Below, one piece after another: positions 1 to 63,801 of a DNA stretch of 64,000 bases; position 1 is the first letter of the stretch, and each line of letters starts with the position of its first letter. Below the pieces are notes generated by a model. The model searched no databases. It was not told the origin of the DNA and was given only the letters and a program-made list of their open reading frames with translations. The position numbers and the translations under genes were made by a program. Origin of the DNA: an uncultured Gammaproteobacteria bacterium (GTDB taxonomy: Bacteria; Patescibacteriota; Patescibacteriia; Magasanikbacterales; GWA2-37-8); assembly GCA_964496095.1 (NCBI GenBank), contig CAZBWU010000001.1, forward strand, positions 185,474 through 249,473, in the 5' to 3' direction.

Positions 1-70
1 TGGATTCCCGCTGTTGCGAGAATGACAGTTGAGACAGGGATCCCTCGGGGCGAACCCCACTCGGGATGAT
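1..70. repeat. Copy of TGTCAT-TIR miniature element family (truncated by window edge)
   Basis: GAGAATGACAG + GACAGGGATCCCTCGGGGCGAACCCCACTCGGGATGA, near-identical to 54350-54394. Confidence 0.7.
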
Positions 71-80
71 ATTGAAGTGA

Positions 81-18119: not shown

Positions 18120-18177
18120 TGTTTGATTTTGTTATAGAGATAGGGTAAACTAGCGACAAGTTAATGCGCCCATGAAT

Positions 18178-18316
18178 TGTCATTCTGAGCTGAGCGAAGA
18201 ATCTCTGTCCGTGCAATTGTCATTCCCGCCAAAGCGGAAATCCAGACAATTTAAACACTGGATTCCCAATCAAGTTGGGAATGACAGAGATCCTTCGGCT
18301 ACGCTCAGGATGACAG
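18178..18316. repeat. Composite/nested copy of TGTCAT-TIR miniature element family (inner copy 18218-18286 with perfect 10-bp TIR TGTCATTCCC/GGGAATGACA)
   Basis: TGTCATTCTGAGC..GAAGAATCTCTGTCC module, then TGTCATTCCC...GGGAATGACA, then GAGATCCTTCGG...CTCAGGATGACAG; same modules recur at 11 other sites in the window. Confidence 0.8.
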
Positions 18317-18388
18317 GTAAATGTATGTCCGACCCCAGTACCAGAGCCACAAGAGTGGCTCGGTACGGGGCAAGTTTTGTTCACTATT

Positions 18389-21300
18389 ATGGATTTTGTC
18401 CATCTTCACGTTCATAGTCATTATTCTTTGCTTGATGCTCTGCCAAAAATAGACGAGCTAGTTGATCATGCCAAAAAACTTGGCTACAAATCTTTGGCTC
18501 TCACCGATCATGGTAACATGTATGGCACGATTGAGTTTTATGAGGCTTGTCAAAAAGCTGGCATCAAACCAATTATCGGGATGGAAGCATATCTAGTGGT
18601 AGGCAGTCGATTTGATAAAAATAATAGAGATGAAAAAATTTATCATCAAGTTCTTTTGGCTGAAAATAATATTGGTTATAAAAATTTGATGAAATTGGCG
18701 TCGCTGGCCAGTCTAGAGGGTTTTTCTGATAAGCCTCGTTTGGATAAAGAATTATTAAAACAATATCATGAAGGATTGGTTGCGCTTTCTGGATGTTTTG
18801 CCGGTGAAATTCCAACTATTTTACAAAGAGACGATAATTTTGATAAAGCCAAAAATGTAGCTTTGGAGTATCAAGAAATTTTTGGTAAAGATAATTTTTA
18901 TTTGGAACTAATGGATTTGCCTGCCTTGGAAGGTCAGATGGATATGAATACCAAGCTTATCCAATTATCGGCTGAGACAGGAATTCCAATGGTCGTCACT
19001 CGAGATTCTCATTATTTGGAAGAAGATGAAGCTGAGGCGCAAGATGTACTCACTTGTATTAGAGATGGTAAGACAATGGATGAGGATGGTCGAGCGACAA
19101 TGAACGGCGTAGATTATTCTCTCGCGCCTGCTAAAGAAATTATAAATCGTTTTAAGCATGTCCCAGAAGCGATTAGTAATACCGTAAAAATTGCCGACAG
19201 AGCGAATGTGACTATTGAATTAAATAAATGGCATTTTCCTCATCTAAATATTCCAGATGGCAAGACCGTTGATGAATACTTGCGAGAACAGGTTTATGAA
19301 AAATTGCCAAAGCGCATAGAGATGACCGAAGAAGTCAAAAAGCGCGCGGATTATGAGTTGGATATTATTGCTAAAAAAGGGTATTCGCCATATTTTCTCA
19401 CCGTGGCGGATTATATTAACTATGCCCGTGAGCATAGAATTATGGTGACCACTCGTGGTTCGGCAGCTGGCTCGGTAGTTTCTTTTGCGATGGGAATTGT
19501 GATGGATAATCCGCTTTATTTTAAACTTCCCTTTGAACGTTTTTTGAATCCGTTTCGTCCGAGTCCGCCTGATATTGACGGCGATTTTGCCGATGACAGA
19601 CGTGATGAGATGATTGCTTATGTGACCAAAAAGTATGGCGCAGACAAAGTGGCGCAGATTATTACGTTTGGGACAATGGCGGCTAGAGGTTCAGTGCGAG
19701 ATGTGGGTCGCGCGCTTGGTTATTCCTATTCTTTTTGTGATCAAATTTCCAAACTGATTCCTTTTGGCGCCCAAGGTTTTCAAATGACCATTGCCAAAGC
19801 ATTGACCTTGGAACCGGAATTAAAAAAACTATATGACAAGAACGCAGAGGTAAAACGTTTGCTTGATTTGGCGCAGAAGGTAGAAGGTTGCGCGCGCCAC
19901 ACTTCTATTCATGCAGCGGGAGTGGTTATCTCGCCAACGCCGCTGACAGATTTTACGCCTGTGCAACTTGAAACTGGTGGAGATAAAATCGTTACTCAGT
20001 ATGAAATGCATTCGGTAGAAACTGCCGGAGTTTTGAAGATGGACTTCTTGGGTATTCGCAACTTATCTATTTTAGGAAATGCAGTGGAGATAATCGAAAA
20101 AACTACTGACCAAAAAATAAATGTCTATAATTTGTATCCGTGGAATGACGCTAAGACATATGATATGTTGGCGCGCGGAGAGACTGTGGGTGTTTTTCAG
20201 TTAGCCAGTTCGGGTATGACAAGATATCTCAAAGAACTAAAGCCGAGCTCTATCTTTGATATCATGGCGATGGTAGCCCTTTTCCGTCCGGGTCCAATGG
20301 ATTCTATTCCTGACTATATTTTAAGAAAAAATAATCACGACCTGATAGAATACGAAGACCCAAGAATGAAAGATTATCTAGATCAATCTTTGGGGCTTAT
20401 TGTTTATCAAGATGATGTGTTGCTTACGGCTATAAATTTAGCAGGCTATAATTGGGAAGAAGCCGATAAGTTCCGCAAAGCCATGGGTAAAAAAATTCCT
20501 GAAGAAATGGCGAAACAAAAAGAGAAATTTTTTAAAGGGGCAAAAGAATTTGGAAAATTAACTAGTGAAACTATTAATAAACTTTGGGAACGCATTGAGC
20601 CTTTTGCGGCCTATGGTTTTAATAAAGCGCACGCTGCTAGTTATGCGGTCGTGGCGTATCAAACCGCTTATCTTAAGGCCAATTTTCCCGTGCAATATAT
20701 GACAGCGGTACTTATTGCCGAAAGTGGCGATATTGATAAGGTGCCAGAAATTATTCATGAATGTGAACGCATGGGCGTAAAAGTTTTGCCTCCTGATATT
20801 AATGAAAGCTTTAAGAGTTTTGCGATGACCCCAATAGCAGGGTCGCAGGAGCGACTCGCTACGGGGCAAGTTCCTTCTGCAGGTACGAGCGTAATTAGGT
20901 TCGGCTTAAATGGCATTAAAAATTTGGGTGAGAATATTGCCGAAGCAATTTACCAAGAACGTAAAGCCAATGGTAAATTCAAAGATCTGCAGGATTTTCT
21001 TACTAGAGTAAAAGATAAAGATTTAAATAAAAAATCTTTGGAAAGTTTGGCCAAGTGTGGAGCGTTGGATGGTTTTGGTTATGATAGGGGCGTACTATTG
21101 GCAAACATGGAAAACATTTTGTCATTTAGTAAACAAATAAAAGAAGGTGGCGCCAACACACAACATTCTTTGTTTTCCGGCACATCTTTAGACGCAGTTT
21201 CTGTATTAAAATTAGTAAATGCTAAGCCAGCCAACGAAGCCGATAAATTGACTTGGGAAAAAGAGTTGCTTGGTTTTTATATTACTTCACATCCTTTCAA

Positions 21301-21883
21301 GGCTTATCAAGAAATAATGAAAGACACTCTCATACCCCTCAAAGATTTGTCAGCTCAGCCTCGTAATCAGTGGGTGGTAGTAGGGGGAATGCTTGATTCA
21401 ACTAAGAAAAAAATTACGCGTAGTGGCAAGGCCATGATGTTTGCAAAATTGCTCGATACTACCAGCAGCTTGGAATTATTGGTTTTTCCAAAGACTTACG
21501 AAACCACAGCGGCTATTTGGGTGGAAGGTAGACCGGTGTGTGTGATTGGTCGCACTTCGGAAGAAGAAGGAGATGATAAATTGTTTGTAGAAAAAGCCTA
21601 TGTACTGACCAAAGAAAATGCGGCTACCTTGGCCAAGCAAATGTCTTTTGGTAAAAGTTATGAAACAAAAAAAGAGCCCGAACCAATTAGTTTTGCATTT
21701 GAAATTGCGGTTAGCCCAGAGCAATTAAAATCTCAAGCTGAAGCGATAAAAAATATTTTGAGTCAATATCCGGGGGATGAAGCTGTAATACTCAAGGTGG
21801 GAGATAAAATTATTCGAACTTCTTATAGAGTTGATGGTTCGGAAGAATTAAGAAACGAACTTGCAACCATTGTTTCCAATTAA
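18389..21883 (+). CDS. dnaE: DNA polymerase III alpha subunit
   Basis: 1165 aa from ATG 18389 (ORF track begins at an upstream TTG); N-terminal PHP domain (HLHVHSHYSLLDA), Pol III alpha core, OB-fold. Confidence 0.93.
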   Translation: MDFVHLHVHSHYSLLDALPKIDELVDHAKKLGYKSLALTDHGNMYGTIEFYEACQKAGIKPIIGMEAYLVVGSRFDKNNRDEKIYHQVLLAENNIGYKNLMKLASLASLEGFSDKPRLDKELLKQYHEGLVALSGCFAGEIPTILQRDDNFDKAKNVALEYQEIFGKDNFYLELMDLPALEGQMDMNTKLIQLSAETGIPMVVTRDSHYLEEDEAEAQDVLTCIRDGKTMDEDGRATMNGVDYSLAPAKEIINRFKHVPEAISNTVKIADRANVTIELNKWHFPHLNIPDGKTVDEYLREQVYEKLPKRIEMTEEVKKRADYELDIIAKKGYSPYFLTVADYINYAREHRIMVTTRGSAAGSVVSFAMGIVMDNPLYFKLPFERFLNPFRPSPPDIDGDFADDRRDEMIAYVTKKYGADKVAQIITFGTMAARGSVRDVGRALGYSYSFCDQISKLIPFGAQGFQMTIAKALTLEPELKKLYDKNAEVKRLLDLAQKVEGCARHTSIHAAGVVISPTPLTDFTPVQLETGGDKIVTQYEMHSVETAGVLKMDFLGIRNLSILGNAVEIIEKTTDQKINVYNLYPWNDAKTYDMLARGETVGVFQLASSGMTRYLKELKPSSIFDIMAMVALFRPGPMDSIPDYILRKNNHDLIEYEDPRMKDYLDQSLGLIVYQDDVLLTAINLAGYNWEEADKFRKAMGKKIPEEMAKQKEKFFKGAKEFGKLTSETINKLWERIEPFAAYGFNKAHAASYAVVAYQTAYLKANFPVQYMTAVLIAESGDIDKVPEIIHECERMGVKVLPPDINESFKSFAMTPIAGSQERLATGQVPSAGTSVIRFGLNGIKNLGENIAEAIYQERKANGKFKDLQDFLTRVKDKDLNKKSLESLAKCGALDGFGYDRGVLLANMENILSFSKQIKEGGANTQHSLFSGTSLDAVSVLKLVNAKPANEADKLTWEKELLGFYITSHPFKAYQEIMKDTLIPLKDLSAQPRNQWVVVGGMLDSTKKKITRSGKAMMFAKLLDTTSSLELLVFPKTYETTAAIWVEGRPVCVIGRTSEEEGDDKLFVEKAYVLTKENAATLAKQMSFGKSYETKKEPEPISFAFEIAVSPEQLKSQAEAIKNILSQYPGDEAVILKVGDKIIRTSYRVDGSEELRNELATIVSN

Positions 21884-23022
21884 TTATCAATCTTCCAATT
21901 TGGATCAGCGGTTATTTTATTCCAAGAAGTAAATTCTTTTTTTAGTGCATGGTGGTATCCAGCTGTGGCAATCATCGCGCCGTTATCCATGGCGTATTTT
22001 AATTCCGGAATTTGGAAACTAATTTCAGGGAATCTTTTGGTTATTTCTGTGGCTAAGGTTTCACGCAGTTTTTTGTTGGCGCTCACACCCCCACCTAAAA
22101 TAATAGTTTTGGGTTTATGCTCTTGCGCGGCTAGCATAGTTTTGACTACCAGTACATCAATAATTGCTTGTTCAAAACTAGCGCAAAAATCATTGATAGA
22201 AATGTTTGTGGCGACTTGTTTGTCATTCTGAGGAAGAGAAGCGATAGAAGAATCTATTCCTTTTAATTGAGATTGATTTGTTGTTTCGTTTAGGGTTGTA
22301 GGTAAAATGTGGTTATCCCTTAACCAATAAAGCGCTGAAGTTTTTAATCCTGAGAAACTAAAATTATAATCACCGCTATTTATCATCGGTCTAGGAAAGT
22401 TTATAGCATCAGTTTTGCCCTCTAAGGCAAGTTTGGAAATTTGTGGTCCGCCAGGATAGGTGAGGCCAATTAGTTTGGCCACTTTATCAAAACATTCACC
22501 AGCGGCGTCGTCTTTGGTAGAGCCAAGTATTTTGTAATCACCATGATTCTTCATGAGAATTAATTCGGTGTGTCCGCCACTAACGATTAAGGCTAGAGCC
22601 GGGAAATATATTTTTTTACTGTCATTCTGAGGGAGAGAAGCGGCTGAAGAATCTCTGTCTTGGATTTGTGTGGAGTATATGTGTCCTTCAATATGGTTGG
22701 TAGAAACAAGTGGAATATCCCAAGCATAAGAAAGAACGCGCGCGGCCTCAACGCCTACGAGCAGTCCCGTAATGAGTCCTGGCCCAGAAGTGACAGCTAT
22801 GGCGTCTGGCTTTGGTTGGTTTTCGAGCACTGCCTCAATAAGTGGGACGATTTTTTCCGCATGCATACGTCCAGCAATTTCTGGAACCACACCGCCATAT
22901 TTTTTATGCACATCAATTTGGGAAGCGGTTTTTTCTGATAAAACAAAACAGCCTTTGTCCGAACAATCGAGCAAGGCAATAGACGTGTCATCACAAGATG
23001 ATTCAATACCGAGGATTAGCAT
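21880..23022 (-). CDS. tsaD: tRNA N6-adenosine threonylcarbamoyltransferase TsaD
   Basis: 380 aa; MLILGIESSCDDTSIALL start, HxEGH metal motif (NHIEGHIY), SGGV..N motifs; contains two in-frame repeat-element insertions. Confidence 0.9.
   Translation of the reverse strand: MLILGIESSCDDTSIALLDCSDKGCFVLSEKTASQIDVHKKYGGVVPEIAGRMHAEKIVPLIEAVLENQPKPDAIAVTSGPGLITGLLVGVEAARVLSYAWDIPLVSTNHIEGHIYSTQIQDRDSSAASLPQNDSKKIYFPALALIVSGGHTELILMKNHGDYKILGSTKDDAAGECFDKVAKLIGLTYPGGPQISKLALEGKTDAINFPRPMINSGDYNFSFSGLKTSALYWLRDNHILPTTLNETTNQSQLKGIDSSIASLPQNDKQVATNISINDFCASFEQAIIDVLVVKTMLAAQEHKPKTIILGGGVSANKKLRETLATEITKRFPEISFQIPELKYAMDNGAMIATAGYHHALKKEFTSWNKITADPNWKIDN
22221..22260. repeat. TGTCAT-TIR element module, in-frame inside tsaD
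   Basis: TGTCATTCTGAGGAAGAGAAGCGATAGAAGAATCTATTCC; encodes extra peptide ...GIDSSIASLPQNDKQ... in TsaD. Confidence 0.8.
22620..22659. repeat. TGTCAT-TIR element module, in-frame inside tsaD
   Basis: TGTCATTCTGAGGGAGAGAAGCGGCTGAAGAATCTCTGTC; encodes extra peptide ...QDRDSSAASLPQNDSKK... after the HxEGH motif. Confidence 0.8.
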
Positions 23023-23027
23023 AGTTG

Positions 23028-23101
23028 TGTCAGGGGAGAGAGTTGAACTCTCGACCTCGGGGTTATGAATCCCGTGCTCTTACCAACTGAGCTACCCTGA
23101 C
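23028..23101 (-). tRNA. tRNA-Met (anticodon CAU; elongator Met or Ile2-lysidine type)
   Basis: Hand-folded cloverleaf: acceptor GTCAGGG/CCCTGAC, D-arm GCTC-AGTTGGTAA-GAGC, anticodon loop TTCATAA, T-arm GAGAG-TTCAACT-CTCTC, discriminator A; no encoded CCA. Confidence 0.8.
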
Positions 23102-23227: not shown

Positions 23228-23299
23228 GGTCTCATCGTCTAATGGTTAGGACATTGCCCTTTCAAGGCGAAAATACGGGTTCAATTCCCGTTGGGACTA
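23228..23299 (+). tRNA. tRNA-Glu (anticodon UUC)
   Basis: Hand-folded: acceptor GGTCTCA/TGGGACT (two G-U pairs), D-arm GTC-TAATGGTTA-GGAC as in bacterial tRNA-Glu, anticodon stem TTGCC/GGCGA with loop CTTTCAA, T-arm ACGGG-TTCAATT-CCCGT, discriminator A. Confidence 0.8.
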
Positions 23300-46934: not shown

Positions 46935-47675
46935 TTATTTTAAAGTATCTAAGTTAATAGCATTAGTTAGTAAGTAGTCACCAATCTGAGTACGAACCAA
47001 TTCTTGGCAAAAGGCGCCGGTGCCAAGCTTTTGGCCAAGGTCGTGAGCAAGGGTCCGGATATATGTTCCTGCCGAACATTGTACCTCTATTTTTAAAACA
47101 GGCCAAGTGTAATCCAAAAGTTTAATTTCATAAATTTCTATCTCGTTTGGTTGGCGTTCTACTTCTATGCCTTTGCGGGCGAGGGTGTATAATCTTTGGC
47201 CGTTTATTTTTTTAGCAGAAAACATCGGCGGGATTTGGAGTTGTTTGCCTGTAAAAGATTTTATTGCCTCTAGGATTTGCTCTTCGGTTATTGTTTTTGG
47301 GTTATTCGTTTTTTCTATTTTTCCAGTTTTGTCGTAAGTATCGCTAGTTTCTCCGAATTTGATGGTGGCAATATAAATTTTTTTCATTCTTTTAAATTCG
47401 TCTAAGTTTCTGGTAGATTCTCGTCCAACGCCGATAATTAATAATCCAGTGGCAAAAGGATCAAGTGTTCCTGCATGACCGACTCGGAGTTTTTTTGGGC
47501 TGTTATTCTGAGGCTCTGCCGAAGAATCCCTTTCGTTTGGTTTTAAGGGATCCTTTACGGAGTTTATCCCCTTTGGGGGGTTCAGGATGACACCGTTCCT
47601 AACTTTATTACGTACAAAAGCTACAGCATCAAAGCTGGTCCAACCTTCGGGTTTGTTGATGAGTAGGAATGACAT
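46935..47675 (-). CDS. truB: tRNA pseudouridine(55) synthase TruB
   Basis: 246 aa; catalytic motif GHAGTLDPFATG; contains an in-frame repeat-element insertion upstream of the catalytic Asp region. Confidence 0.88.
   Translation of the reverse strand: MSFLLINKPEGWTSFDAVAFVRNKVRNGVILNPPKGINSVKDPLKPNERDSSAEPQNNSPKKLRVGHAGTLDPFATGLLIIGVGRESTRNLDEFKRMKKIYIATIKFGETSDTYDKTGKIEKTNNPKTITEEQILEAIKSFTGKQLQIPPMFSAKKINGQRLYTLARKGIEVERQPNEIEIYEIKLLDYTWPVLKIEVQCSAGTYIRTLAHDLGQKLGTGAFCQELVRTQIGDYLLTNAINLDTLK
47501..47592. repeat. TGTCAT-TIR element copy, in-frame inside truB
   Basis: TGTTATTCTGAGGCTCTGCCGAAGAATCCC...GGGATCCTTTACGG...TTCAGGATGACA; encodes extra loop ...ILNPPKGINSVKDPLKPNERDSSAEPQNNSPKK... 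in TruB. Confidence 0.8.
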
Positions 47676-49814: not shown

Positions 49815-49922
49815 TGTCATTCCGAACCCTTATTTTTATGGGGTGAGGAATCTATTCCTATTAAATTATAAAATAATTCAGTATAGATCCCTCGTCGGCT
49901 ACGGCCTCGCTCGGGATGACAA
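49815..49922. repeat. TGTCAT-TIR element copy (intergenic infB-trxA)
   Basis: TGTCATTCCGAACCC...GAGGAATCTATTCC...GATCCCTCGTCGGCTACGGCCTCGCTCGGGATGACAA. Confidence 0.8.
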
Positions 49923-50411: not shown

Positions 50412-50460
50412 TGTCATTCTGAACAGAGTGAAGAATCCCTCCACTACGGTCGGGATGACA
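50412..50460. repeat. Minimal (49-nt) TGTCAT-TIR element copy immediately 5' of leuS
   Basis: TGTCATTCTGAACAGAGTGAAGAATCCCTCCACTACGGTCGGGATGACA - both termini present. Confidence 0.8.
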
Positions 50461-50469
50461 AAAAAATCT

Positions 50470-53400
50470 ATGAAGAAATACGACCCAAAAAAAATAGAAG
50501 CAAAATGGCAAAAGTATTGGGAGAAAAATAAAACTTTTGAAGTTACGGAAGATCCAAAGCGTGAGAAGTTTTATGGTTTGATTGAGTTTCCTTATCCAAG
50601 TGGGGAAGGTTTGCACGTCGGGCATCCGCGTTCAAACACAGCGATGGATGTTATTTCCCGTAAGAAAAGAATGGAAGGAAAAAATGTTTTGTTCCCGATC
50701 GGGTTTGATGCGTTTGGATTACCAACTGAAAATTTTGCAATCAAAACAGGTAAGCCACCAGCCGAAGTGACCAAAAAAAATATTGCCAATTTTACTCGTC
50801 AGCTCAAAATGCTTGGTTTTAGTTTTGACTGGTCCAGGCAAGTTGACACTACCGATCCGCAATACTACAAATGGACTCAGTGGTTATTTTTGCAATTTTT
50901 CAAACACGGACTAGCTTATAAAAAAAATCAACCGATTAACTGGTGTCCGAAAGATAAAATTGGTTTGGCTAATGAAGAAGTTGTGGGCGGTTGTTGTGAG
51001 CGGTGTGGTACGCCGGTAGAAACAAAAAATAAAGAACAGTGGATGCTCGCTATTACCAAGTATGCTGACAAGCTTTTGGCAGGCCTAAAAGATGTAGATT
51101 ATATTGAGCGCGCTCGATTGCAACAAGAAAATTGGATTGGTAAAAGTGAAGGCGCCGAAGTTGTTTTTCCTTTGCGTGTGTCTGGACAAGTTGACGGCAA
51201 ATACACCGTAAAAGTTTTTACTACTCGTCCTGATACTATTTTTGGCGCAACTTTTATTGCTATCTCCGCCGACTTGGCCAAGGAGTGGGTTGGAGCTGGT
51301 TGGAGTCCAAGCGAAGAAATAAAAAATTATATTACTGAAGTTTTAAAAGTCCGCACTACGACCAACACTCGTGAAGAGCAAGAAAAAACTGGAGTCAGTG
51401 CTGGGGTAATGGCTATCAATCCAGTTTCAAAAGAAGAAATTCCAGTTTGGATTACCAATTATGTAATGGGTGGAGTAGGCACGGGTGCGATTATGGGAGT
51501 ACCAGCGCACGATGAACGCGATTTTGATTTTGCGAAGAAGTTTGGCTTGTCTGTTAAGCAAGTAGTAAAAAATCTAAATGAAAAACCAAAGTATTTAGTT
51601 TTTGATTTTGATGGGGTGATTGGGGATACGATTGAAGAGGGCGTTAAGGTAAATATGGCTCTTGATACAATTTCTGAAGAACAAGCAAGAAAAAATATAC
51701 ATGAGTATTTTAGCAGGAAGCCAAGCCATGCAAAGGGCCATACTTTGACTGATGATGAGTTAGAGAAGAGAGCTGATTGGATAAAAAGGTATGGTGAAAT
51801 AATGTTTAAATTAAACCCACCTCTGTTTGATGATTTTATTAAGGCTATAAAAAATATATCAAACATAAAGATTGCGGTAATTTCCGCCGGTTCAGGTTTG
51901 TATATCAAAAATCGTATGCCTGAGACTGATTTAAACCCGACTCATGTTTTGACATACGAAGACCACCATTCAAAGGAACAAAAAATCGAGCAGGTATGTA
52001 AGGATTGGGGAGTGTCTATGCAAGATGTATATTATTTTACTGATACCAAAGCGGATGTCTATGAACTAGAAAATTGCTTAGATAGAAAAAAAATTATTGG
52101 TTGTGCTTGGGGTTATTCCGGTTATGATGGTTTGCGTGAACTTTTGCCGGAAAATCAAGTGTTGAAAAATTTTACTGATATAAATAATCTGTTTACAGAT
52201 GGACCGTATACCGAAGATGGTGTAGCGGTTAATTCCGATTTTCTCAATGGTCTAAAAACAGATGAAGCTAAAATAAAAATGATAAGTTGGTTGGAAGAAA
52301 ATAAAATTGGTAAGAAACAAATAAATTATAAACTACGTGATTGGGTATTTTCTCGCCAGCGTTATTGGGGTGAGCCGATTCCACTTGTATATTGTGAAAA
52401 ATGTGCTGGCTGGATTCCGCTACCTGAGAGCGAACTACCTCTTAAACTTCCTAAAGTAGAAAAATATCAACCAACAGACAATGGCGAATCACCGCTCGCC
52501 GCCATGGAAAAATGGGTAAAGACAAAATGTCCGCAGTGTGGCGGTCCGGCCAGAAGAGAAACAGATACGATGCCAAATTGGGCAGGCTCTTCTTGGTATT
52601 TCTTGGCCTATGCTTTGGGTGGGGAAAAAGGTTTGAAAGAGAGAGGTGATAAGTTTTGGGATAAAGAATTATTAAAACAGTGGATGCCGATAGATTGGTA
52701 TAATGGGGGAATGGAACATACGGTTTTACACCTACTTTATTCTCGTTTTTGGAATATATTTTTGCATGATATTGGACTGGTGCCTACAAGTGAGCCGTAT
52801 AAAAAACGCACTTCCCACGGCATGATCTTGGCCAAAGGCGGAGAGAAGATGAGCAAGTCAAAAGGCAATGTGGTGAATCCCGATGAGATGGTAGAGCAGT
52901 TTGGCGCGGATGCCCTGCGTACCTATATTATGTTTATGGGTCCGTTTGATCAGGCAGTGGAGTGGGATACGAATGGGTTAATAGGAGTGAAACGATTTTT
53001 GGATAAGGTGTGGAATTATGCTATCGATAGATTACCTTCGGTTCCCAAGGAACGGAGGGATACAAGTGCCTTGACTAAGCTTCATCAAACAATTAAGAAA
53101 GTTAGTGAAGGTATTGATTCTATGAAATTCAATACCGCAATTGCATCGATGATGGAGTTTATGAATACTATTTATAAACCACTTGAAGATGGTAAGGTTG
53201 TTAGCGAGCCAGCGCCACTTATCGGTGAGCAAGATTTTATTAAGTTTTTAAAATTACTTTCTCCTTTTGCTCCACATATGTGTGAAGAAATTTGGAGTCA
53301 GCTTGGAAACAAAAACACTTTGGTCTTTGAACCTTGGCCAGAATACGATGAGGCCTTGACCAAAGAAAGTGAAATTACACTAGCTGTACAAGTAAATGGG

Positions 53401-53556
53401 AAATTGCGCGATACGATAACGGTACAGGCTGATATCTCGGAGGAAGAAGCAAAGAAAATAGTTTTGGCTAGTGAGAAAATTCAGAAGTGGTTGGAAGGCA
53501 AAGAACCCAAGAAAATTATTTACGTAAAAGGGAAGTTGGTGAGTATGGTTGTTTAA
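50470..53556 (+). CDS. leuS: Leucine--tRNA ligase with inserted HAD-like domain
   Basis: 1028 aa from ATG 50470 (MKKYDPKKIEAKWQKYW; ORF track start 50428 lies inside the repeat element); HIGH-region (PYPSGEGLHVGH), editing domain (TTRPDT), KMSKS; extra about 200-aa HAD-like segment between VPAHDERDFDFA and the NYKLRDW region. Confidence 0.9.
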   Translation: MKKYDPKKIEAKWQKYWEKNKTFEVTEDPKREKFYGLIEFPYPSGEGLHVGHPRSNTAMDVISRKKRMEGKNVLFPIGFDAFGLPTENFAIKTGKPPAEVTKKNIANFTRQLKMLGFSFDWSRQVDTTDPQYYKWTQWLFLQFFKHGLAYKKNQPINWCPKDKIGLANEEVVGGCCERCGTPVETKNKEQWMLAITKYADKLLAGLKDVDYIERARLQQENWIGKSEGAEVVFPLRVSGQVDGKYTVKVFTTRPDTIFGATFIAISADLAKEWVGAGWSPSEEIKNYITEVLKVRTTTNTREEQEKTGVSAGVMAINPVSKEEIPVWITNYVMGGVGTGAIMGVPAHDERDFDFAKKFGLSVKQVVKNLNEKPKYLVFDFDGVIGDTIEEGVKVNMALDTISEEQARKNIHEYFSRKPSHAKGHTLTDDELEKRADWIKRYGEIMFKLNPPLFDDFIKAIKNISNIKIAVISAGSGLYIKNRMPETDLNPTHVLTYEDHHSKEQKIEQVCKDWGVSMQDVYYFTDTKADVYELENCLDRKKIIGCAWGYSGYDGLRELLPENQVLKNFTDINNLFTDGPYTEDGVAVNSDFLNGLKTDEAKIKMISWLEENKIGKKQINYKLRDWVFSRQRYWGEPIPLVYCEKCAGWIPLPESELPLKLPKVEKYQPTDNGESPLAAMEKWVKTKCPQCGGPARRETDTMPNWAGSSWYFLAYALGGEKGLKERGDKFWDKELLKQWMPIDWYNGGMEHTVLHLLYSRFWNIFLHDIGLVPTSEPYKKRTSHGMILAKGGEKMSKSKGNVVNPDEMVEQFGADALRTYIMFMGPFDQAVEWDTNGLIGVKRFLDKVWNYAIDRLPSVPKERRDTSALTKLHQTIKKVSEGIDSMKFNTAIASMMEFMNTIYKPLEDGKVVSEPAPLIGEQDFIKFLKLLSPFAPHMCEEIWSQLGNKNTLVFEPWPEYDEALTKESEITLAVQVNGKLRDTITVQADISEEEAKKIVLASEKIQKWLEGKEPKKIIYVKGKLVSMVV

Positions 53557-53916: not shown

Positions 53917-55545
53917 ATGCTCAAGGAGGGGCTAGAACAAATCATCAAGAGCAAAAGTAAAACATTTCTCGCGTTTTGTTTTTGTTTTATTTTAGGCGCA
54001 GGTATTTTTTCTTTGTTTGAAGGCAAAGAATTTTTGTTTTATCTCCATATTTTATTATTTGCAATTTTGTTTTTTGTTATTATCTTCTGGTCAAAAAAAG
54101 AGTATCGGTTTTATTGTCTATGTCTGTTAGTTTTTGTGTTAGGTGGAATTAGATTTTTCCTGACAATTCCTGGGAAAGATGCAGATAGGATAGATTTTTA
54201 TAATGGTAGTAAAAAGATTATTAAAGGGTTTGTGGTGCGTGAACCGGATATTGGAGTAAGTGATGCGAGGTATGTGGTGCGGGTAGAAGCAATCGCTAAT
54301 CAGCCTGTCATTACGATGACGAAGGAGGAATCTCTGTCCAAATCAAAAATTAGACAGAGATCCCTCCGGGGCGTAAACCCCACTCAGGATGACAATCAGA
54401 GAGAGCGAGCCTCGGGAAATATTATGATTAAGACGTTAATTTATCCCGAATATAAATATGGCGATCAATTGGAAGTTAGTTGCCTTCTTCAAGAACCAAC
54501 AAATTTTGCAGATAGTGATTTCAATTATAAAAAATATCTAGCCAAACAAGATGTGTGGTCAACTTGTGCCAATCCGCAAATAAAAAAGGTGGGTGCAGGT
54601 AAAGGCAATTTTTTTATCAGTGCAATGTTGAAAATGAAAAGTAGAATAACTTTGCAGATGGCCAAACTTTGGCCTGAGCCAAGCAATAGTCTGATGGCCG
54701 GGATTTTATATGGCGCTCGCAGCGGTTTGCCCGATGATTTAACAACTAATTTTAGTCGTACGGGTGTGACTCATATTGTCGCTGTTTCCGGATATAATGT
54801 GAGTATCATAGTTGTAGTTTTAAATTCAATTTTAATTTATCTTGGATTATTTCGTAAACAATCTTTTTGGTCCTTAGTATTTTTGATTTTAGCCTTTGTC
54901 TTTTTCACTGGCGCTACCGCTTCGGTCGTGCGAGCGGGAATAATGGCGGTGATTGTTTTATTGTCTCAATATTTGGGTCGGCTATCGGCGGTGGGTAGGG
55001 TACTTGTCTATGCGGTTGTGGTGATGCTTATTTTTAATCCCTATCTGTTGATGTGGGATGCGGGCTTTCAGTTATCATTCCTGTCTACTTTGGGGTTGGT
55101 TTATTTGGTGCCTATTTTTGAGCCATTGACTGAAAAGATAAAAGTGACTGGTACTAGCGTGATGTTACTTGAAGTTTTTACGACCACGATGGCTGCGATT
55201 ATGGCTACTATGCCGTTAATTATGCATCAGTTTGGGAGGTTTTCGGTGGTGGCGCCTTTAGTAAATATTTTGGTTTTGTGGATTATTCCTTGGCTGATGT
55301 TGTTTGGGTTTTTGTCTTTGATTTTAAGCCTTGTATTTTTTCCGTTGGGTCAGCTGGTTGCCTGGGTGGCGGGTTTGGGAGTACGATATGTTATAATTGT
55401 TGTAGATTGGTTTGGAAATAAAAGTTGGAGTGCGGTTGATATGAAGATTTCTTTATTAACGATGATATTTATTTATCTCGTACTTATACTTTTTGTCACC
55501 AAAAAGTATCAAAAAGTGTTGGGGCGGCAGAACTCGCCTCATTAA
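53917..55545 (+). CDS. comEC: ComEC/Rec2 competence channel protein (membrane part; DUF4131 + competence domain)
   Basis: 542 aa; many TM helices; competence-domain signature region GILYGARSGLPDDL...TGVTHIVAVSGYNVSII; carries in-frame repeat-element insertion. Confidence 0.8.
   Translation: MLKEGLEQIIKSKSKTFLAFCFCFILGAGIFSLFEGKEFLFYLHILLFAILFFVIIFWSKKEYRFYCLCLLVFVLGGIRFFLTIPGKDADRIDFYNGSKKIIKGFVVREPDIGVSDARYVVRVEAIANQPVITMTKEESLSKSKIRQRSLRGVNPTQDDNQRERASGNIMIKTLIYPEYKYGDQLEVSCLLQEPTNFADSDFNYKKYLAKQDVWSTCANPQIKKVGAGKGNFFISAMLKMKSRITLQMAKLWPEPSNSLMAGILYGARSGLPDDLTTNFSRTGVTHIVAVSGYNVSIIVVVLNSILIYLGLFRKQSFWSLVFLILAFVFFTGATASVVRAGIMAVIVLLSQYLGRLSAVGRVLVYAVVVMLIFNPYLLMWDAGFQLSFLSTLGLVYLVPIFEPLTEKIKVTGTSVMLLEVFTTTMAAIMATMPLIMHQFGRFSVVAPLVNILVLWIIPWLMLFGFLSLILSLVFFPLGQLVAWVAGLGVRYVIIVVDWFGNKSWSAVDMKISLLTMIFIYLVLILFVTKKYQKVLGRQNSPH
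54306..54394. repeat. TGTCAT-TIR element copy, in-frame inside comEC
   Basis: TGTCATTACGATGACGAAGGAGGAATCTCTGTCC...GACAGAGATCCCTCCGGGGCGTAAACCCCACTCAGGATGACAA; encodes ...EESLSKSKIRQRSLRGVNPTQDDNQ... Confidence 0.8.
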
Positions 55546-55626: not shown

Positions 55627-56235
55627 ATGTCAAAAAAAATAAAAGTATTTTCTTCAGACCAGGGCTATGATTTGGCTGCGGAGTTTTATGATCAAAAAGA
55701 AAAGTACCTCAATAGTTTTGAGCAGAATAAAATTTTGCCACTGTTGGGAGATGTTAAGAATAAAAAAGTTTTGGATATTGGAGCGGGGACTGGTCGTCTG
55801 TCTTTGCAACTGGCAAAAGGCGGAGCGCAAGTAATGGCTTTGGATGTGTCGGAAAAAATGCTAGAGCTGGTTAAAAGAAAAAATCACAAGGTTCAAACAA
55901 CGGTAGCTGATGCCGAGAATTTACCTTTTGAAAATAATAGTTTTGATGTAGTGACCGCGGCTTTTTTGATTGTCCATCTCAAAGATCCAGCCAGATTTTT
56001 TGATGAAGTCTATAGAATTCTTAAAGACGGGGGAAAATTTGTAGTAACAAATATTAATCAAAAAGATCCTCCAGAAGTAAAAACCAAAGAGGGGAATATT
56101 ATTATTGAATCTTTTTATCATCGGCCAGAAAAAATAAAAGAGATCCTGGAGTCACTGGCTTTTCAAGTTGAACAAGAAATTTTTGTAAAAGAAAATGAGA
56201 TTTGGGTTAATCAAATTTTATTGGTAAGAAAGTAA
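55627..56235 (+). CDS. Class I SAM-dependent methyltransferase
   Basis: 202 aa; motif I VLDIGAGTGRLS, motif post-I LDVSEKM, acidic D at ADAENLPF. Confidence 0.8.
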   Translation: MSKKIKVFSSDQGYDLAAEFYDQKEKYLNSFEQNKILPLLGDVKNKKVLDIGAGTGRLSLQLAKGGAQVMALDVSEKMLELVKRKNHKVQTTVADAENLPFENNSFDVVTAAFLIVHLKDPARFFDEVYRILKDGGKFVVTNINQKDPPEVKTKEGNIIIESFYHRPEKIKEILESLAFQVEQEIFVKENEIWVNQILLVRK

Positions 56236-56240
56236 ATATT

Positions 56241-56828
56241 ATGAAGTTGCTCAAACACAGTACAAAAAATAAAGTTATTTTTATATGGCTATTAGTTTTA
56301 GCCACGGTTCTTTATTTATATTTTTTTAAAAGTGATTTTATAATGGCGCAAATTACTAACATTCGCCACTTGCCACTGTTTTGGCTGTGCACGGTCTATC
56401 TTGTTATCAATTGTTTAAGGGGTTTCACATTTATACCAGTTACCTATACTATGATTCTCGGGTTGGTATTTTTACCAGCGCCAGCCGTGTATATTTTGAC
56501 CATTATCGGAGTCGGAACTTCCGCAACCTCTATTTACTATTTTTCTGAGTATTTGAGCCTAGGAAATTATTTCAAACAGAATTATCCGACAGTCATTGCC
56601 AAGTTAACCAATATTTTAAAAAAATACGAACTTCCGATTATCACCGTTTGGAGCTTCTTACCATTTTTAGCAACCGATGCTATGTGTTATGTATGTGGCA
56701 CACTGCGGATTAATTTTAAGAAATTTATTATTGGGGTTTTGTTGGGTGAAGGAGTTTTTTGCGCCCTTTTTATTTTTTTAGGCAAAGATTTTGCAGTTTT
56801 TATTACTCGTAAAATTTTTGGTTTATAA
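56241..56828 (+). CDS. DedA/TVP38 (VTT-domain) family membrane protein
   Basis: 195 aa; multiple TM, conserved FLPFLATDAMCYVCG-type segment. Confidence 0.6.
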   Translation: MKLLKHSTKNKVIFIWLLVLATVLYLYFFKSDFIMAQITNIRHLPLFWLCTVYLVINCLRGFTFIPVTYTMILGLVFLPAPAVYILTIIGVGTSATSIYYFSEYLSLGNYFKQNYPTVIAKLTNILKKYELPIITVWSFLPFLATDAMCYVCGTLRINFKKFIIGVLLGEGVFCALFIFLGKDFAVFITRKIFGL

Positions 56829-56831
56829 ACC

Positions 56832-57695
56832 ATGTCCAAAGACAAAAAAATACTTCTAATCCCGTTTATATTTCTCATCTTGCTTTTAGGGTGTGTTTTT
56901 TATTATCACTATAATAATCTTCGCCCATCTGAGTTCAAAGTCAATTTTTTGGATATTGGTCAGGGTGACGCAACTCTTATTCTATTTAACAATGGCCAAA
57001 AAATGTTGGTAGATTGTGGTAAAGACAAAAAGATTTTATCCAGACTTGGTGAGGCTATGCCTTTTTATGATCGCACGATAGATTTTTTGATAGCTACTCA
57101 TCCTGATTTGGATCATTATGGTGGCTGTATTGATGTGCTCAAAAATTACAAAGTCAAAGAAATTATTCTTAATGGCGGTCAGAAACAATATGACCCATAT
57201 TGGCGGACGTGGGATCAAGCCGTGCAAAATGAAGGCGCAATCATAAAAATTATAAATAAGGCGGAAGTTTGGACAATCGGTAGTTCCACTTTGGAATTTT
57301 TATCGCCTGATAAGTCTTTGGTTTTAAATGTTCCGGCAGACGACAGTAATAATTATTCAATTGTTTTTAGATTAAAAAATAATGGTGAGAATTTCTTGTT
57401 TACAGCTGATATGGAAGTGCCGCTAGAAAATGCATTATTAAATAAGTATTGCATTGTCACTTCTACCGAACCCTGTCCCGCCCTCCAAGCATATATTCTC
57501 AAAGTCGGCCATCACGGTAGTGACAGTTCTTCGGGTGAAGATTTTTTGCGAGCAGTGGGAGCTAAGATCGGTATTATTTCTGTGGGTGTAAATAACAAGT
57601 ACGGTCATCCGTCTCGACGCGTGATGAAGAAATTAGAAAGAGCGGGAATGGAGATTTTGCGGACGGATCAGTTAGGGAGTATTTTTGAATATTAA
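56832..57695 (+). CDS. ComEC-type metallo-beta-lactamase domain protein (stand-alone C-terminal ComEC nuclease-like domain)
   Basis: 287 aa; N-terminal TM; MBL motif DFLIATHPDLDHYGG, later KVGHHGSDSS; resembles the C-terminal lactamase_B domain of ComEC/Rec2. Confidence 0.7.
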   Translation: MSKDKKILLIPFIFLILLLGCVFYYHYNNLRPSEFKVNFLDIGQGDATLILFNNGQKMLVDCGKDKKILSRLGEAMPFYDRTIDFLIATHPDLDHYGGCIDVLKNYKVKEIILNGGQKQYDPYWRTWDQAVQNEGAIIKIINKAEVWTIGSSTLEFLSPDKSLVLNVPADDSNNYSIVFRLKNNGENFLFTADMEVPLENALLNKYCIVTSTEPCPALQAYILKVGHHGSDSSSGEDFLRAVGAKIGIISVGVNNKYGHPSRRVMKKLERAGMEILRTDQLGSIFEY

Positions 57696-59968: not shown

Positions 59969-60062
59969 TGTCATCCCGAGCGAGCCCTCAAGGGCGACGA
60001 GGGATCTTTCCGAGAAAGAGTTCTACTAACGGAAAGATTCTTCACTCCGTTCAGAATGACAG
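59969..60062. repeat. Full-length (94-nt) TGTCAT-TIR element copy (intergenic nusA-yidC)
   Basis: TGTCATCCCGAGCGAGCCCTCAAGGGCGACGAGGGATCTTTCCGAG...CGGAAAGATTCTTCACTCCGTTCAGAATGACAG; about 94 percent identical to 62676-62768. Confidence 0.85.
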
Positions 60063-61131: not shown

Positions 61132-62187
61132 ATGAATACTTCCGACTCTTTGCAATTATCGCTAAAAAAAACTTTGGCCTATTTTGATTTAGCTAATTTC
61201 CCATTGACCAAAGAAGAGTTGTATAATTTTTTGTGGGAACCGCCACAGGTTAGTTACGCTGAATTCCTGTTGTCATTGCGAGACTACACCTTTGGTGAAG
61301 GCGAAGCAATCCCACTGTTTGGTAGTGCTAACAATGGGATTGCCGCGTCGTCTCAAAAAATTGGGACTCCTCGCAATGACACAGTGAAGTCGTTCATGAT
61401 GACAGAGCAAAATGGTTATTATTTTTTATCTGGCAGAGAAGAATTGGTTGAGACCAGGCGTTGTCGGTTGCTTATTTCTGAAAATAAATTAAAGATTGCG
61501 CGTCGAGCGGCTAGGATAGTACGGTCCGTGCCATTTTTAAAAGCGATTTTTGTCTGCAATACTGTAGGTGCGGAGCAGGCAACAGAGGATAGTGATATTG
61601 ATTTTTTTATTGTAACTGAAAAAAACAGGATTTGGATTGCCCGATTGTGGGTGACTTTTTTGTTAGGACTTTTTAGATTAAGGCGAGTAAATAATCGCAT
61701 TAAGAATAAAATTTGTTTGAGTTTTTATGTGACGGCCGATAGTCTGAATCTGGCGAATTTAAGAGTGGTTGATGACGATATTCACTTTGCTTATTGGATT
61801 AATCAGATGTTACCACTATATGACCCAGAAAATTATTATGCCAAATTTTTACAAGCCAATAGTTGGACAAAAAAATATTTGCCTAATATAAAATCTGAGA
61901 AAATGAGTTCGTATATTTTTAAGATTAGCGAATCAAAGTTAGGCAGAGTTTGGAAAAGAGCTTGGGAAAAAATGTGGACTGGCGCTTATGGTGATTTGAT
62001 TAATGGTGAAGCTAAAAAAATTCAGATTTCAAAGATGAAGTTTTCCGGCAAGAAAATAGTTAGGGGAGAAGATAAGGGTGTAGTTATTTCTGATCAGATT
62101 TTGAAGTTTCACGAAAAGGATACAAGGTTGGAATATAGAGAGGCTTGGTTAAATAAAGTTAATGTTATTCCGAACGAAGGAGCTTGA
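61132..62187 (+). CDS. Hypothetical protein with Pol-beta-type nucleotidyltransferase motif
   Basis: 351 aa; G[AS]x9-13 DxD pattern (VGAEQATEDSDIDFFIV). Confidence 0.4.
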   Translation: MNTSDSLQLSLKKTLAYFDLANFPLTKEELYNFLWEPPQVSYAEFLLSLRDYTFGEGEAIPLFGSANNGIAASSQKIGTPRNDTVKSFMMTEQNGYYFLSGREELVETRRCRLLISENKLKIARRAARIVRSVPFLKAIFVCNTVGAEQATEDSDIDFFIVTEKNRIWIARLWVTFLLGLFRLRRVNNRIKNKICLSFYVTADSLNLANLRVVDDDIHFAYWINQMLPLYDPENYYAKFLQANSWTKKYLPNIKSEKMSSYIFKISESKLGRVWKRAWEKMWTGAYGDLINGEAKKIQISKMKFSGKKIVRGEDKGVVISDQILKFHEKDTRLEYREAWLNKVNVIPNEGA

Positions 62188-62200
62188 GCGATTGAGTTGA

Positions 62201-62300
62201 GCCTGCCTGCGGTAGGCAGGGAATCCCTTAAACACGGTATTTGCAATTACTATGCATAAGGGATCTTTCGACTCAGCTAAAGCCTCGCTCAAGATGACAA
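62201..62300. repeat. Hairpin (CCTGCC..GGCAGG) plus TGTCAT-TIR element module (intergenic)
   Basis: GGGAATCCCTTAAACA...ATAAGGGATCTTTCGACTCAGCTAAAGCCTCGCTCAAGATGACAA; same module as 63218-63304. Confidence 0.75.
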
Positions 62301-62307
62301 CAAACGT

Positions 62308-63801
62308 ATGATTCTTAAAAAAATAGAAAATTTATTATTGTTAGCCTTTTTGTTTTTATTGCCTTGGCAAACTAGATATATCTGGCAGGAAGGGCAATTG
62401 AGCGGCGGGCATTGGGAGTATGGCACGTTTAGTATTTATGGGACCGAGATTTTGCTTTGGATAATTATTTTATTATTTTTTTTTCGTCATTTGTTTAATA
62501 AAGAAATGCGGCAGGGCTTTTTAACTAAAAAGAAGTTTTTTATTTTTCCAGTTATTTTTTTAGGGTTAATATGGTTGTCGCTTGGTTTCAGTGAAAATTT
62601 TTGGGTGTCATATCAGTATGTATTTAGATGGTTGGGGGCGATAGCCATGGCGATTGTGTTAACCAACCACACAAATGTCATCCCGAGCGAGCCCTCAAGG
62701 GCGACGAGGGATCTTTCCGAGAAAGAGCCTGTTAACGGAAAGATTCTTCACTCTGTTCAGAATGACAGTAAATTGTTTGCCTTATGGCTTAGCGCTGTAG
62801 TCCAAGGCCTGCTGGCAGTTTATCAATTTTTAACTCAGCATGTCTTTGCGAGTAAGTGGTTGGGAATGTCGGCGCAAGATGCGATGCAGGGCGGAGCGAG
62901 TGTGGTGGAGTTTGCAGATCAAAGATGGCTGCGCGCTTATGGTAGTTTTGGTTCGCCAAATTCTTTGGGGATATATTTGGCAGTGTTGTTAGTCTTGGGT
63001 TTTATTTTATATGTTAAAACCGAACGACCGTTTTATAAAATTTTAATTAGTGTCGGGCAATTAATTATTTTATCTGGCTTGCTGTTTTCTTTTTCTCGAG
63101 GAGCCTGGCTATCGGCTATAGTGGGCATAATTTGTTTGGCTGTCATTGTTTTTGTTGCCGGCTGTCATTCTGAGCAAGGCGAAGAATCTCTGTCCAACCA
63201 CTTGTCATTCCGACCGAAGTGGAGGAATCCCTTAAACAAAATACTTGCAAAGACGATGGATAAGGGATCCCTCGGCTTCGCTACGGTTCCGCTCGAGATG
63301 ACAATGCGAAAAGATTTTATTAAACAAGTTATTTTTATTTTAGTCTTAACTGGTTTTTGGGTAGGAATATTTTTTCCTATATTTAGCGCGCGATTTAATA
63401 TTCATAATCGGTTAGAAGTTTATTCTATCGCTGAAAGACAAAGCCAATATAAAGAATCTTTATCATTTATAAAGAACAAACCATTTTTTGGAGTAGGGCC
63501 AGCTCTCTATACATATACAGTCTCAAAAAAATATCCTAAATTAGCCTCATGGCAATTCCAGCCGGTTCATAATATTTATGTGTTGGCTGCGGTGGATTTC
63601 GGTGTTGTTTTTGTATTATTTTTGGGTTTAATTTTCTTAAGTTTAATTAAAAAAGTTTTTAAAAATAATCTTATTTTTCTTCCAGTTTTATTTACCTTGC
63701 TTATGGCCGGGCTCTTCGACCACTGGCTTTTTAGCATGTTTACAGGCCTTGTTTTTTACTGGGCTATTATTGGTTTAGGACAGGATAAGGTGAACTCTTG
63801 A
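62308..63801 (+). CDS. O-antigen ligase/polymerase (Wzy_C)-like integral membrane protein
   Basis: 497 aa; about 10 TM helices; periplasmic loop with FSRGAWLS-type Wzy_C signature; two in-frame repeat-element insertions. Confidence 0.6.
   Translation: MILKKIENLLLLAFLFLLPWQTRYIWQEGQLSGGHWEYGTFSIYGTEILLWIIILLFFFRHLFNKEMRQGFLTKKKFFIFPVIFLGLIWLSLGFSENFWVSYQYVFRWLGAIAMAIVLTNHTNVIPSEPSRATRDLSEKEPVNGKILHSVQNDSKLFALWLSAVVQGLLAVYQFLTQHVFASKWLGMSAQDAMQGGASVVEFADQRWLRAYGSFGSPNSLGIYLAVLLVLGFILYVKTERPFYKILISVGQLIILSGLLFSFSRGAWLSAIVGIICLAVIVFVAGCHSEQGEESLSNHLSFRPKWRNPLNKILAKTMDKGSLGFATVPLEMTMRKDFIKQVIFILVLTGFWVGIFFPIFSARFNIHNRLEVYSIAERQSQYKESLSFIKNKPFFGVGPALYTYTVSKKYPKLASWQFQPVHNIYVLAAVDFGVVFVLFLGLIFLSLIKKVFKNNLIFLPVLFTLLMAGLFDHWLFSMFTGLVFYWAIIGLGQDKVNS
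62676..62768. repeat. TGTCAT-TIR element copy (93 nt = 31 codons), in-frame inside Wzy-like gene
   Basis: Near-identical to intergenic copy 59969-60062; encodes ...VIPSEPSRATRDLSEKEPVNGKILHSVQNDSK... Confidence 0.85.
63163..63304. repeat. Composite TGTCAT-TIR element copy (142 nt), in-frame inside Wzy-like gene
   Basis: TGTCATTCTGAGCAAGGCGAAGAATCTCTGTCC + TGTCATTCCGACC...GGAATCCCTTAAACA...GGGATCCCTCGGCTTCGCTACGGTTCCGCTCGAGATGACAA; encodes ...CHSEQGEESLSNHLSFRPKWRNPLNKILAKTMDKGSLGFATVPLEMTMRKD... Confidence 0.85.

Follow-up and report, generated by a model that had tools for sequence, protein, structure and literature searches.

A TGTC-tagged palindromic repeat carried in frame in comEC of a Magasanikbacteria-like bacterium, an old and probably tolerated insertion

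Results

An extra loop in the OB fold of ComEC

This analysis concerns a repeat element inside comEC, the gene of the competence channel ComEC, in a 64,000-nucleotide stretch of DNA (the window) that covers positions 185,474 to 249,473 of contig CAZBWU010000001.1 (GenBank assembly GCA_964496095.1; an uncultured Gammaproteobacteria bacterium by name, Magasanikbacterales GWA2-37-8 within the Patescibacteriota by GTDB lineage). The encoded protein matches two Pfam families, PF13567 (DUF4131; amino acids (aa) 42-216, 1.2e-16) and PF03772 (Competence; aa 264-527, 8.2e-50), and by sequence also the solved ComEC entries 30bt and 9vc6 of the PDB. ComEC homologues number 1436 at E <= 1e-20, the named ones being Candidatus Magasanikbacteria or Patescibacteria, and typical relatives are 505-515 aa long. 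The DUF4131 match aligns 149 profile positions and leaves about 26 extra residues; in an alignment of 119 ComEC sequences, the segment between strands β2 and β3 of the oligonucleotide/oligosaccharide-binding (OB) fold has a modal length of 10 residues versus 40 here. Relative to most ComEC homologues, this segment is an insertion. Short loops are found at its site in the related loci L001, L002, L005, L007 and L011, and the closest insert-free relative is the homologue P0004.

An initial annotation of the window had expected the insert in a loop between a DUF4131-like N-terminal region and the competence domain. It lies instead inside DUF4131, in the predicted β2-β3 loop of the OB fold, where the model places a low-confidence coil between the strands of aa 117-128 and 163-173. 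A domain-only AlphaFold model of the OB region (mean predicted local distance difference test score, pLDDT, 87.8) shows strands at aa 99-106 and 117-128, then coil, two strands (168-173 and 184-192), a helix (204-210) and a further strand (213-226), with ten-residue blocks of pLDDT 56-75 over the insert and of at least 95 on its borders. The best PDB matches of this model in Foldseek are OB folds of SSB and the ComEC OB domain solved by nuclear magnetic resonance (9iew), all with E above 0.001. Solved ComEC has three transmembrane helices followed by a periplasmic OB fold, which is the DNA-binding platform (PMC13539106). We also checked the topology of the protein, which points to an extracytoplasmic loop, because three predicted helices precede the OB fold and this fold is periplasmic in solved ComEC.

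ComEC is split in the window: the beta-lactamase-like domain (a membrane-anchored metallo-beta-lactamase) is a separate open reading frame (ORF), 56832-57695. The two ComEC ORFs are separated by genes for a methyltransferase (55627-56235) and a VTT-domain protein (56241-56828), a layout also seen in the related loci L081, L082, L083 and L084.

Structure of the comEC element

Nucleotides 54306-54394 (89 bp) form a complete element, an inverted dimer of two TGTC-tagged hairpins with the termini TGTCAT...ATGACA. Both ends carry the tag (TGTC.../...GACA), and of the terminal inverted repeats one reads TGTCATYCYGAG and the opposite one its complement. In the left arm the stem is degraded (ATTAC against GGAAT), the copies of L081 and L008 reading TGTCATTCCGACGAC...GGAGGAATCTCTGTC; the spacer between the arms is kept in the L081 orthologue, there as AAAATCAAAAACAG. 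As RNA, the region 54300-54400 folds with -36.9 kcal/mol (z -4.55), and as DNA with -19.9 (z -4.42), the RNA folds of the comEC dimer ranging from -34.4 to -36.9 kcal/mol. The element keeps the reading frame without a stop codon. The peptide it encodes is hydrophilic and slightly basic, with a grand average of hydropathy of -1.14 versus +0.62 for the whole protein, six K/R and four D/E. The translation quoted in the initial annotation, EESLSKSKIRQRSLRGVNPTQDDNQ, is exactly the product of ORF 53917-55545 at this place.

The copy at the start of the window

The same annotation had described nucleotides 54350-54394 of comEC as near-identical to nucleotides 29-70. Both sequences are present, with spans up to 4 nt off: GACAGAGATCC...GGATGACA occupies 54353-54394 and GACAGGGATCC...GGGATGA occupies 33-69. 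As regards their likeness the description holds, if near-identical is taken to mean about 88% identity: a pairwise gapped local alignment of 32-69 with 54352-54392 has 36 of 41 columns identical, two mismatches and three gap positions, and the pair is recovered by blastn within the window at E 6e-8. With the right arm of the comEC element as query against both strands of the entire window, the start copy reaches a score of 52 and the runner-up one of 29; the comEC and start copies are mutual best matches in the window. They are also the only copies there to have the apical hairpin GGGGCG(T)AA(A)CCCC (54368-54381 and 47-58).

The resemblance is confined to the right arm, about 41 nt, and the start copy belongs to another composite element, which is cut by the window edge. 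We infer that the resemblance reflects a common subfamily with an extra apical GGGGCG..CCCC hairpin. The start copy had been placed downstream of radA, and indeed it sits just past the stop codon of radA/sms (81-83, minus strand) and is thus intergenic. The claim that one element family has both intergenic and coding copies is confirmed, the comEC copy being in frame in an intact ORF.

A family of repeats in intact genes and intergenic DNA

At least 13 elements of the family lie in the 64 kb, seven of them in frame in intact genes and six non-coding (Table 1). Their unit consists of TGTC, a stem beginning with AT, a variable loop, the complementary stem and CTCTGTC, and it is found singly, as inverted dimers and nested in composites. 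Stems in the family include ATTCT/AGAAT, ATCCC/GGGAT, ATTGC/GCAAT and ATTCCCGC/GCGGGAAT. Among the 64 TGTCAT sites of the window, 22 have the exact complement of their own five-base stem 6-50 nt further on, compared with a mean of 5.5 and a maximum of 12 in permuted controls. The stem triplets covary (TCT, CCC, TCC, TGC, CCT), which suggests that the hairpin is under selection. The window has nine dimers or composites that are intact and one truncated at the left end; eight of the nine fold strongly (z -3.1 to -8.8), and the left-truncated one has z -2.2. In either orientation two of the three reading frames are open, and the coding copies mostly use those giving 'VI...' and '...QND/QDD'. All intragenic copies of the window (ComEC, TsaD twice, TruB, the Wzy_C-like protein twice and ORF 61132) are in frame and free of stops.

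Table 1. Elements of the repeat family, their parts and their host genes in the window.
Position	Strand	Feature	Remarks
53917..55545	+	comEC, competence channel, 542 aa; host gene	DUF4131/OB fold and Competence domain
54306..54394	+	Complete repeat element, in frame in comEC (aa 130-160, PVITMTKEESLSKSKIRQRSLRGVNPTQDDN)	Recognised by termini and folds; missing from most homologues
54306..54338	+	Left hairpin module TGTCATTACGATGACGAAGGAGGAATCTCTGTC	Stem decayed: ATTAC vs ATTCC in orthologues
54339..54352	+	14-nt AT-rich spacer CAAATCAAAAATTA	Forms the loop at the apex of the long hairpin
54353..54394	+	Right hairpin module GACAGAGATCCCTCCGGGGCGTAAACCCCACTCAGGATGACA	Part matching the window-start copy
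54368..54381	+	Apical mini-hairpin GGGGCGTAAACCCC	Defines the subfamily
1-71		Non-coding element	Cut by window edge
1..27	+	Second-type (CGTC-1-like) hairpin TGGATTCCCGCTGTTGCGAGAATGACA	Within composite cut by window start; parallels 18258-18287
33..69	+	Intergenic paralogue of the right module, GACAGGGATCCCTCGGGGCGAACCCCACTCGGGATGA	Downstream of radA
18178..18315	+	Complete intergenic composite upstream of dnaE	Type-1 dimer enclosing two CGTC-1-like hairpins; family reference copy
21880-23022	-	tsaD, host ORF
22221..22260	-	Single hairpin module in frame in tsaD (aa 255-268, GIDSSIASLPQNDK)
22620..22659	-	Single hairpin module in frame in tsaD (aa 122-135, DRDSSAASLPQNDS)
46935-47675	-	truB, host ORF
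47501..47592	-	Family member (dimer) in frame in truB (aa 28-59)	Right before GHxGTLDP motif
49815-49921		Non-coding element
50412-50460		Non-coding element	Ends 9 nt upstream of the real leuS start
59969..60061	+	Intergenic element between nusA and yidC	Close paralogue of Wzy copy
61132-62187	+	Unannotated 351-aa ORF, host ORF
61271..61381	+	ATTGCGAG-type member in frame in ORF 61132-62187 (aa 47-84)
62199-62299		Non-coding element
62308-63801	+	Wzy_C-like membrane protein, host ORF
62676..62767	+	Member in frame in Wzy_C-like ORF (aa 123-154)
63163..63303	+	Composite in frame in Wzy_C-like ORF (aa 286-332)

A closer pair than that of comEC and the window start is formed by the intergenic copy 59969-60061 and the coding copy 62676-62767, which share 86 of 93 positions; their similarity begins exactly at the left terminus TGTCAT and runs two bases beyond the right one, after ATGACAGT. 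Being tighter, this pair is presumably the younger of the two. The syntenic relative L081 has no element at either of the two Wzy sites. In tsaD, E. coli TsaD (4ydu) shows 13 gap positions opposite the segment around the module at 22620-22659.

Three elements (18178-18315, 63163-63303 and 1-71) are nested composites, in which CGTC-1-like hairpins (TGTCATTCCCGC...GGGAATGACA) stand between the arms of a type-1 dimer. The first of them has an RNA fold of -64.5 kcal/mol (z -7.1) and gives a spurious 81-aa ORF (18172-18417) just upstream of dnaE. At gathering thresholds, Rfam returned no family for the element in the window and two tRNAs only. Two divergent tRNA genes, at 23028-23101 (minus strand) and 23228-23299 (plus strand), adjoin tsaD.

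Inserts in related loci and the history of the ComEC loop

The locus L081 (GCA_964514995.1) is syntenic with the window, and its ComEC is 67% identical. It contains an element with the same spacer and the same loop type at the same junctions (flanks GATCAGCC/TGTCATT and GGATGACA/GTCA), and the comEC insertion thus predates the split of the two. Element-derived peptides of the form VI[PLT]...[QR]DD or ...MT occupy this loop in about 15-20 of 118 homologues.

Such inserts are not confined to one loop or to one gene. The ComEC proteins of L008 (2431-4311), L011 (6001-7827), L007 and L014 have inserts at the C-terminus and at three more loop sites; these sites lie between transmembrane helices 1 and 2, behind the OB fold and in a loop around aa 400, and the C-terminal residues (VIARSE...) are supplied by a repeat in L011, L007 and L081 (there 11600-11629). 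LeuS of L004 (2945-5944) and of L011 (1768-4941) has three in-frame inserts each, for instance VIARSEATKQS...SRNDN and VIPSEARADEESLS. Counted over the related loci that have three or more units, 59 of 93 units sit in frames remaining open for at least 40 codons on either side.

In LeuS of the window (50470-53556), the editing domain is followed by an inserted HAD_2 hydrolase-like domain (aa 377-530), and the orthologues of L081, L082 and L083 have NUDIX domains or a Ser_hydrolase domain at this position. The GTG start listed for leuS at 50428 is probably wrong, homologues beginning with MKKYDPK, which corresponds to the ATG at 50470.

Two histories could account for the distribution of inserts in the β2-β3 loop, namely one ancient insertion followed by turnover and loss, or a hot spot that was hit independently in many lineages. 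In a neighbour-joining tree, computed without support values, insert-bearing ComECs are interleaved with insert-free sisters, as recurrent targeting would have it. The proteins of L084 and L081 are 80% identical and have different element subtypes between identical nucleotide junctions, and the L084 element resembles that of L082, whose protein is only 65% identical. L014 has a different, CGTC-1-like hairpin in the same loop (giving WIPAFAGMT), and L008, with a ComEC 42% identical, has a very similar type-1 dimer there with its right end read in another frame; the occupation of other ComEC loops in several lineages fits the same picture. However, gene conversion between the resident copy and its paralogues explains identical junctions with differing interiors at least as well, a right-arm peptide 'GVNP' or 'GRNP' common to the ComEC inserts of P0001, P0003, P0008 and P0104 favours shared ancestry, and no target motif is evident in the flanks. 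We regard independent targeting of this loop as rather doubtful.

The direction of change is likewise hard to read in the closest pair. ComECs of L082 (3001-4626, filled) and L083 (3001-4539, empty) are 90% identical and differ by 87 nt at the β2-β3 loop, yet their immediate flanks are also rewritten, so that neither a simple insertion nor a clean deletion explains the difference, and gain and loss cannot be polarised.

Distribution beyond the window

A canonical 32-nt unit, TGTCATTCTGAG-CGAAGC-GAAGAATCTCTGTC (also written ATTCTGAGC-GAA-GCGAAGAAT), is present in 117 or more metagenome contigs, where most copies are not in long open frames. These contigs come from many environments and have GC contents of 0.32-0.64, and the unit is therefore not specific to bacteria of the candidate phyla radiation (CPR). 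A scan of viral contigs gave no match to it. The full-text literature searched for this question contained no report of translated palindromic repeats in CPR bacteria, which does not prove that none exists.

Relation to known palindromic repeats

The closest counterpart by architecture is the superfamily of repetitive extragenic palindromic (REP) sequences tagged with CGTC. As described by Di Nocera et al. 2013 (PMC3733652), it includes RPE-4 and RPE-6 of R. conorii (its families CGTC-4 and CGTC-1, respectively) and dRS3 of Neisseria; the tag is unpaired and changed to TGTC in many repeats (variants TGTC or CCTC), stems of 8-9 bp have A-T pairs at positions 1 and 2, loops measure 4-5 nt and the tail is near CCA. 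According to the same source, units mostly form inverted dimers with no dedicated transposase known, and intragenic dimers encode 20-30 residues in truB, aminoacyl-tRNA synthetase genes and dnaE; its table of peptides encoded by REPs lists VIPAKAGI, SFPRKRES, WIPAFAGMT and DSRFRGND.

Set against these features, the window family has the TGTC tag, stems starting with AT, short hairpin units, inverted dimers and in-frame intragenic copies. Its second unit type, TGTC-ATTCCCGC-CAAA-GCGGAAAT-CCAG (18218-18245), is like CGTC-1 in its 8-bp stem, 4-nt loop and CCA tail, and only type-2 units resemble the peptides published there (LSFPPKRKS...HWIPNQVGND at 18218-18287, with SFP.KRKS; WIPAFAGMT in L014). 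In contrast to the repeats as described, the loops of type-1 units, including the comEC copy, measure 7-25 nt and CTC(TGTC) takes the place of the CCA tail; the comEC unit has a stem of the ATTC(T/C)GAG type with tandem G.A mismatches and a 14-nt apical hairpin on its right arm. The host belongs to the Patescibacteria, outside the five phyla listed in 2013, and the intragenic share of 7 of 13 elements is high. Judged by architecture, we file the comEC element as a putative relative within the CGTC/TGTC REP superfamily, rather than assigning it to any of the four families defined there.

Rickettsia palindromic elements (RPE) provide the second comparison. In the review PMC10969869 and in PMC2229807 (after Ogata et al. 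2000), RPE-1 is a palindrome of about 100 bp that forms a long hairpin, occurs in intergenic DNA and in frame in housekeeping genes, sits at protein positions compatible with the fold and is read as selfish DNA tolerated in proteins. The window family is similarly palindromic, in frame in conserved genes (seven copies) and non-coding elsewhere (six copies), with inserts at fold-compatible loops according to the ComEC OB model and the gaps of 4ydu opposite the TsaD insert. The comEC element, likened to RPE-1 by description and not by sequence, differs in its length (89 bp versus 105-150 bp) and in its modular build, single units being in frame as well (TsaD). The RPE-bearing guanylate kinase of R. 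conorii (gmk) is translated and active (PMC2229807), and its translation was shown experimentally; that of the comEC insert is predicted.

The family shares with REPINs, which RAYT tyrosine transposases mobilise, inverted REP doublets that form a larger hairpin, the coexistence of singlets and doublets and the absence of a target-site duplication. Unlike REPINs, which have a GTAG tag and a single-copy RAYT gene flanked by REPs, it is tagged with TGTC, and the 64-kb window has no Pfam match to a Y1 transposase. With transposable elements of the miniature inverted-repeat type (MITEs) that have in-frame copies, such as ERIC, Correia/NEMIS and Coxiella QMITE1, it has in common a small, non-autonomous build, terminal inverted repeats, hairpins that are stable as RNA and, in some cases, fusion in frame with host ORFs. 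Typical MITEs, however, have a target-site duplication (often TA) and a recognisable parent insertion sequence, neither of which was found for the family in the 64-kb window. Widely spaced termini in L004 and L011 were considered as the ends of an autonomous parent, which we rejected: both are leuS with several separate in-frame inserts.

Discussion

We consider it likely that 54306-54394 is a non-autonomous palindromic repeat, built of two inverted REP units around a 14-nt spacer, that was inserted in comEC and is carried in frame. The insert is a real and old insertion of selfish DNA that is probably tolerated. The element would have entered comEC as DNA and would be transcribed and translated with the gene. 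It may persist as some 30 hydrophilic, probably disordered residues in the extracytoplasmic β2-β3 loop of the OB fold, where extra length would be tolerated. Selection would remove copies that land elsewhere or out of frame, and in-frame, stop-free copies in permissive loops would survive.

Several points weigh against this interpretation. Transcription and translation of the insert, and the protein as such, are predicted from metagenome-assembled sequence, and neutrality of the insert for ComEC function is assumed. The lengths bounded by TGT...ACA are not all multiples of three (89, 92, 92, 111 and 141 nt), so that the true insertion boundaries may lie elsewhere, or later indels may have restored the frame. 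No clean empty site is available for comEC, the flanks being too diverged even in the 90%-identical pair L082/L083. No consistent flanking direct repeat, as a target-site duplication would leave, was seen in the flanks of 12 copies, and none of the approximately 55 window ORFs scanned has a transposase-family Pfam match at E <= 1e-5. The Foldseek matches, all weaker than E 0.001, support the OB fold of the model only weakly. Moreover, the β2-β3 (L23) loop of an OB fold is often found next to the face that binds nucleic acid.

The insert could have been co-opted: a basic, flexible loop might aid DNA capture by the OB fold, an mRNA hairpin might regulate translation or stability of comEC, or the DNA itself might act as a signal for uptake or recombination. 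The insert is kept across species whose ComEC is 59-67% identical to that of the window, and its RNA hairpin is very stable. Yet the peptide is not conserved between lineages, which differ in subtypes, frames and lengths, many close relatives are without the insert, the same family occurs in unrelated genes and intergenic DNA, and the left-arm stem of the comEC copy has decayed. Altogether, we regard an acquired function of any of these kinds as unlikely.

Removal of the insert at the RNA level, either intron-like or RNase III-like, is unsupported, and we reject it; all seven intragenic copies keep the frame without stops, which would be needless if they were excised.

That no working protein is made, owing to a pseudogene, to two ORFs fused by annotation or to an assembly artefact at the repeat, appears very improbable. 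The metagenomic origin of the sequence, in which repeats can cause chimeric joins, speaks for such an error. The ORF is uninterrupted, however, strong Pfam matches lie on both sides, conserved OB strands flank the insert, and four independent assemblies from other samples (L081, L084, L082 and L008) have an in-frame element at the same site.

Chance or compositional likeness of two GC-rich patches in an AT-rich genome is negligible as an explanation of the match between the start copy and the comEC copy: the match is short and gapped, and an ungapped search allowing three mismatches returned only the query itself, because the two copies differ by indels, but the gapped alignment, the permutation test of stem complements and the scores of the whole-window scan rule it out, both copies having the conserved flanks of the family (GACAG.GATCCCTC and CTC.GGATGA) and the canonical unit recurring in metagenome contigs as described above.

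Returning to the tolerated insertion, selfish palindromic DNA that is translated within proteins is an already known kind of feature, and the novelty here lies in the lineage, in an intragenic density that is unusually high and in one ComEC loop being occupied repeatedly. Translated palindromic repeats in essential proteins have so far been known mainly from Rickettsia and a few proteobacteria. The present case extends the phenomenon to a very different, streamlined lineage of the candidate phyla radiation, in which ComEC, LeuS, TsaD and TruB are hit. More tentatively, one may ask whether TGTC-tagged REP dimers are an ongoing, genome-wide source of protein-loop insertions in this Magasanikbacteria-like lineage, the same permissive loops being repeatedly gained, replaced and cleanly lost. 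In the window and related loci, at least four sites in ComEC are occupied, and LeuS, TsaD and TruB are affected as well. If this were true, the in-frame density of seven per 64 kb would be far above that described for Rickettsia, and the turnover of loops would imply either site-selective, footprint-free insertion and excision without a known transposase or the exchange of alleles by natural transformation.

For the annotation of CPR genomes, the finding means that such inserts inflate and distort protein alignments, domain boundaries and structure predictions, and that the repeats yield many spurious 'hypothetical' peptides. At the same time, close relatives in which the orthologous loop is filled, filled in another way or empty offer a natural system, which could show how such elements travel when no transposase is known for them and what amount of additional loop a membrane DNA channel can tolerate.

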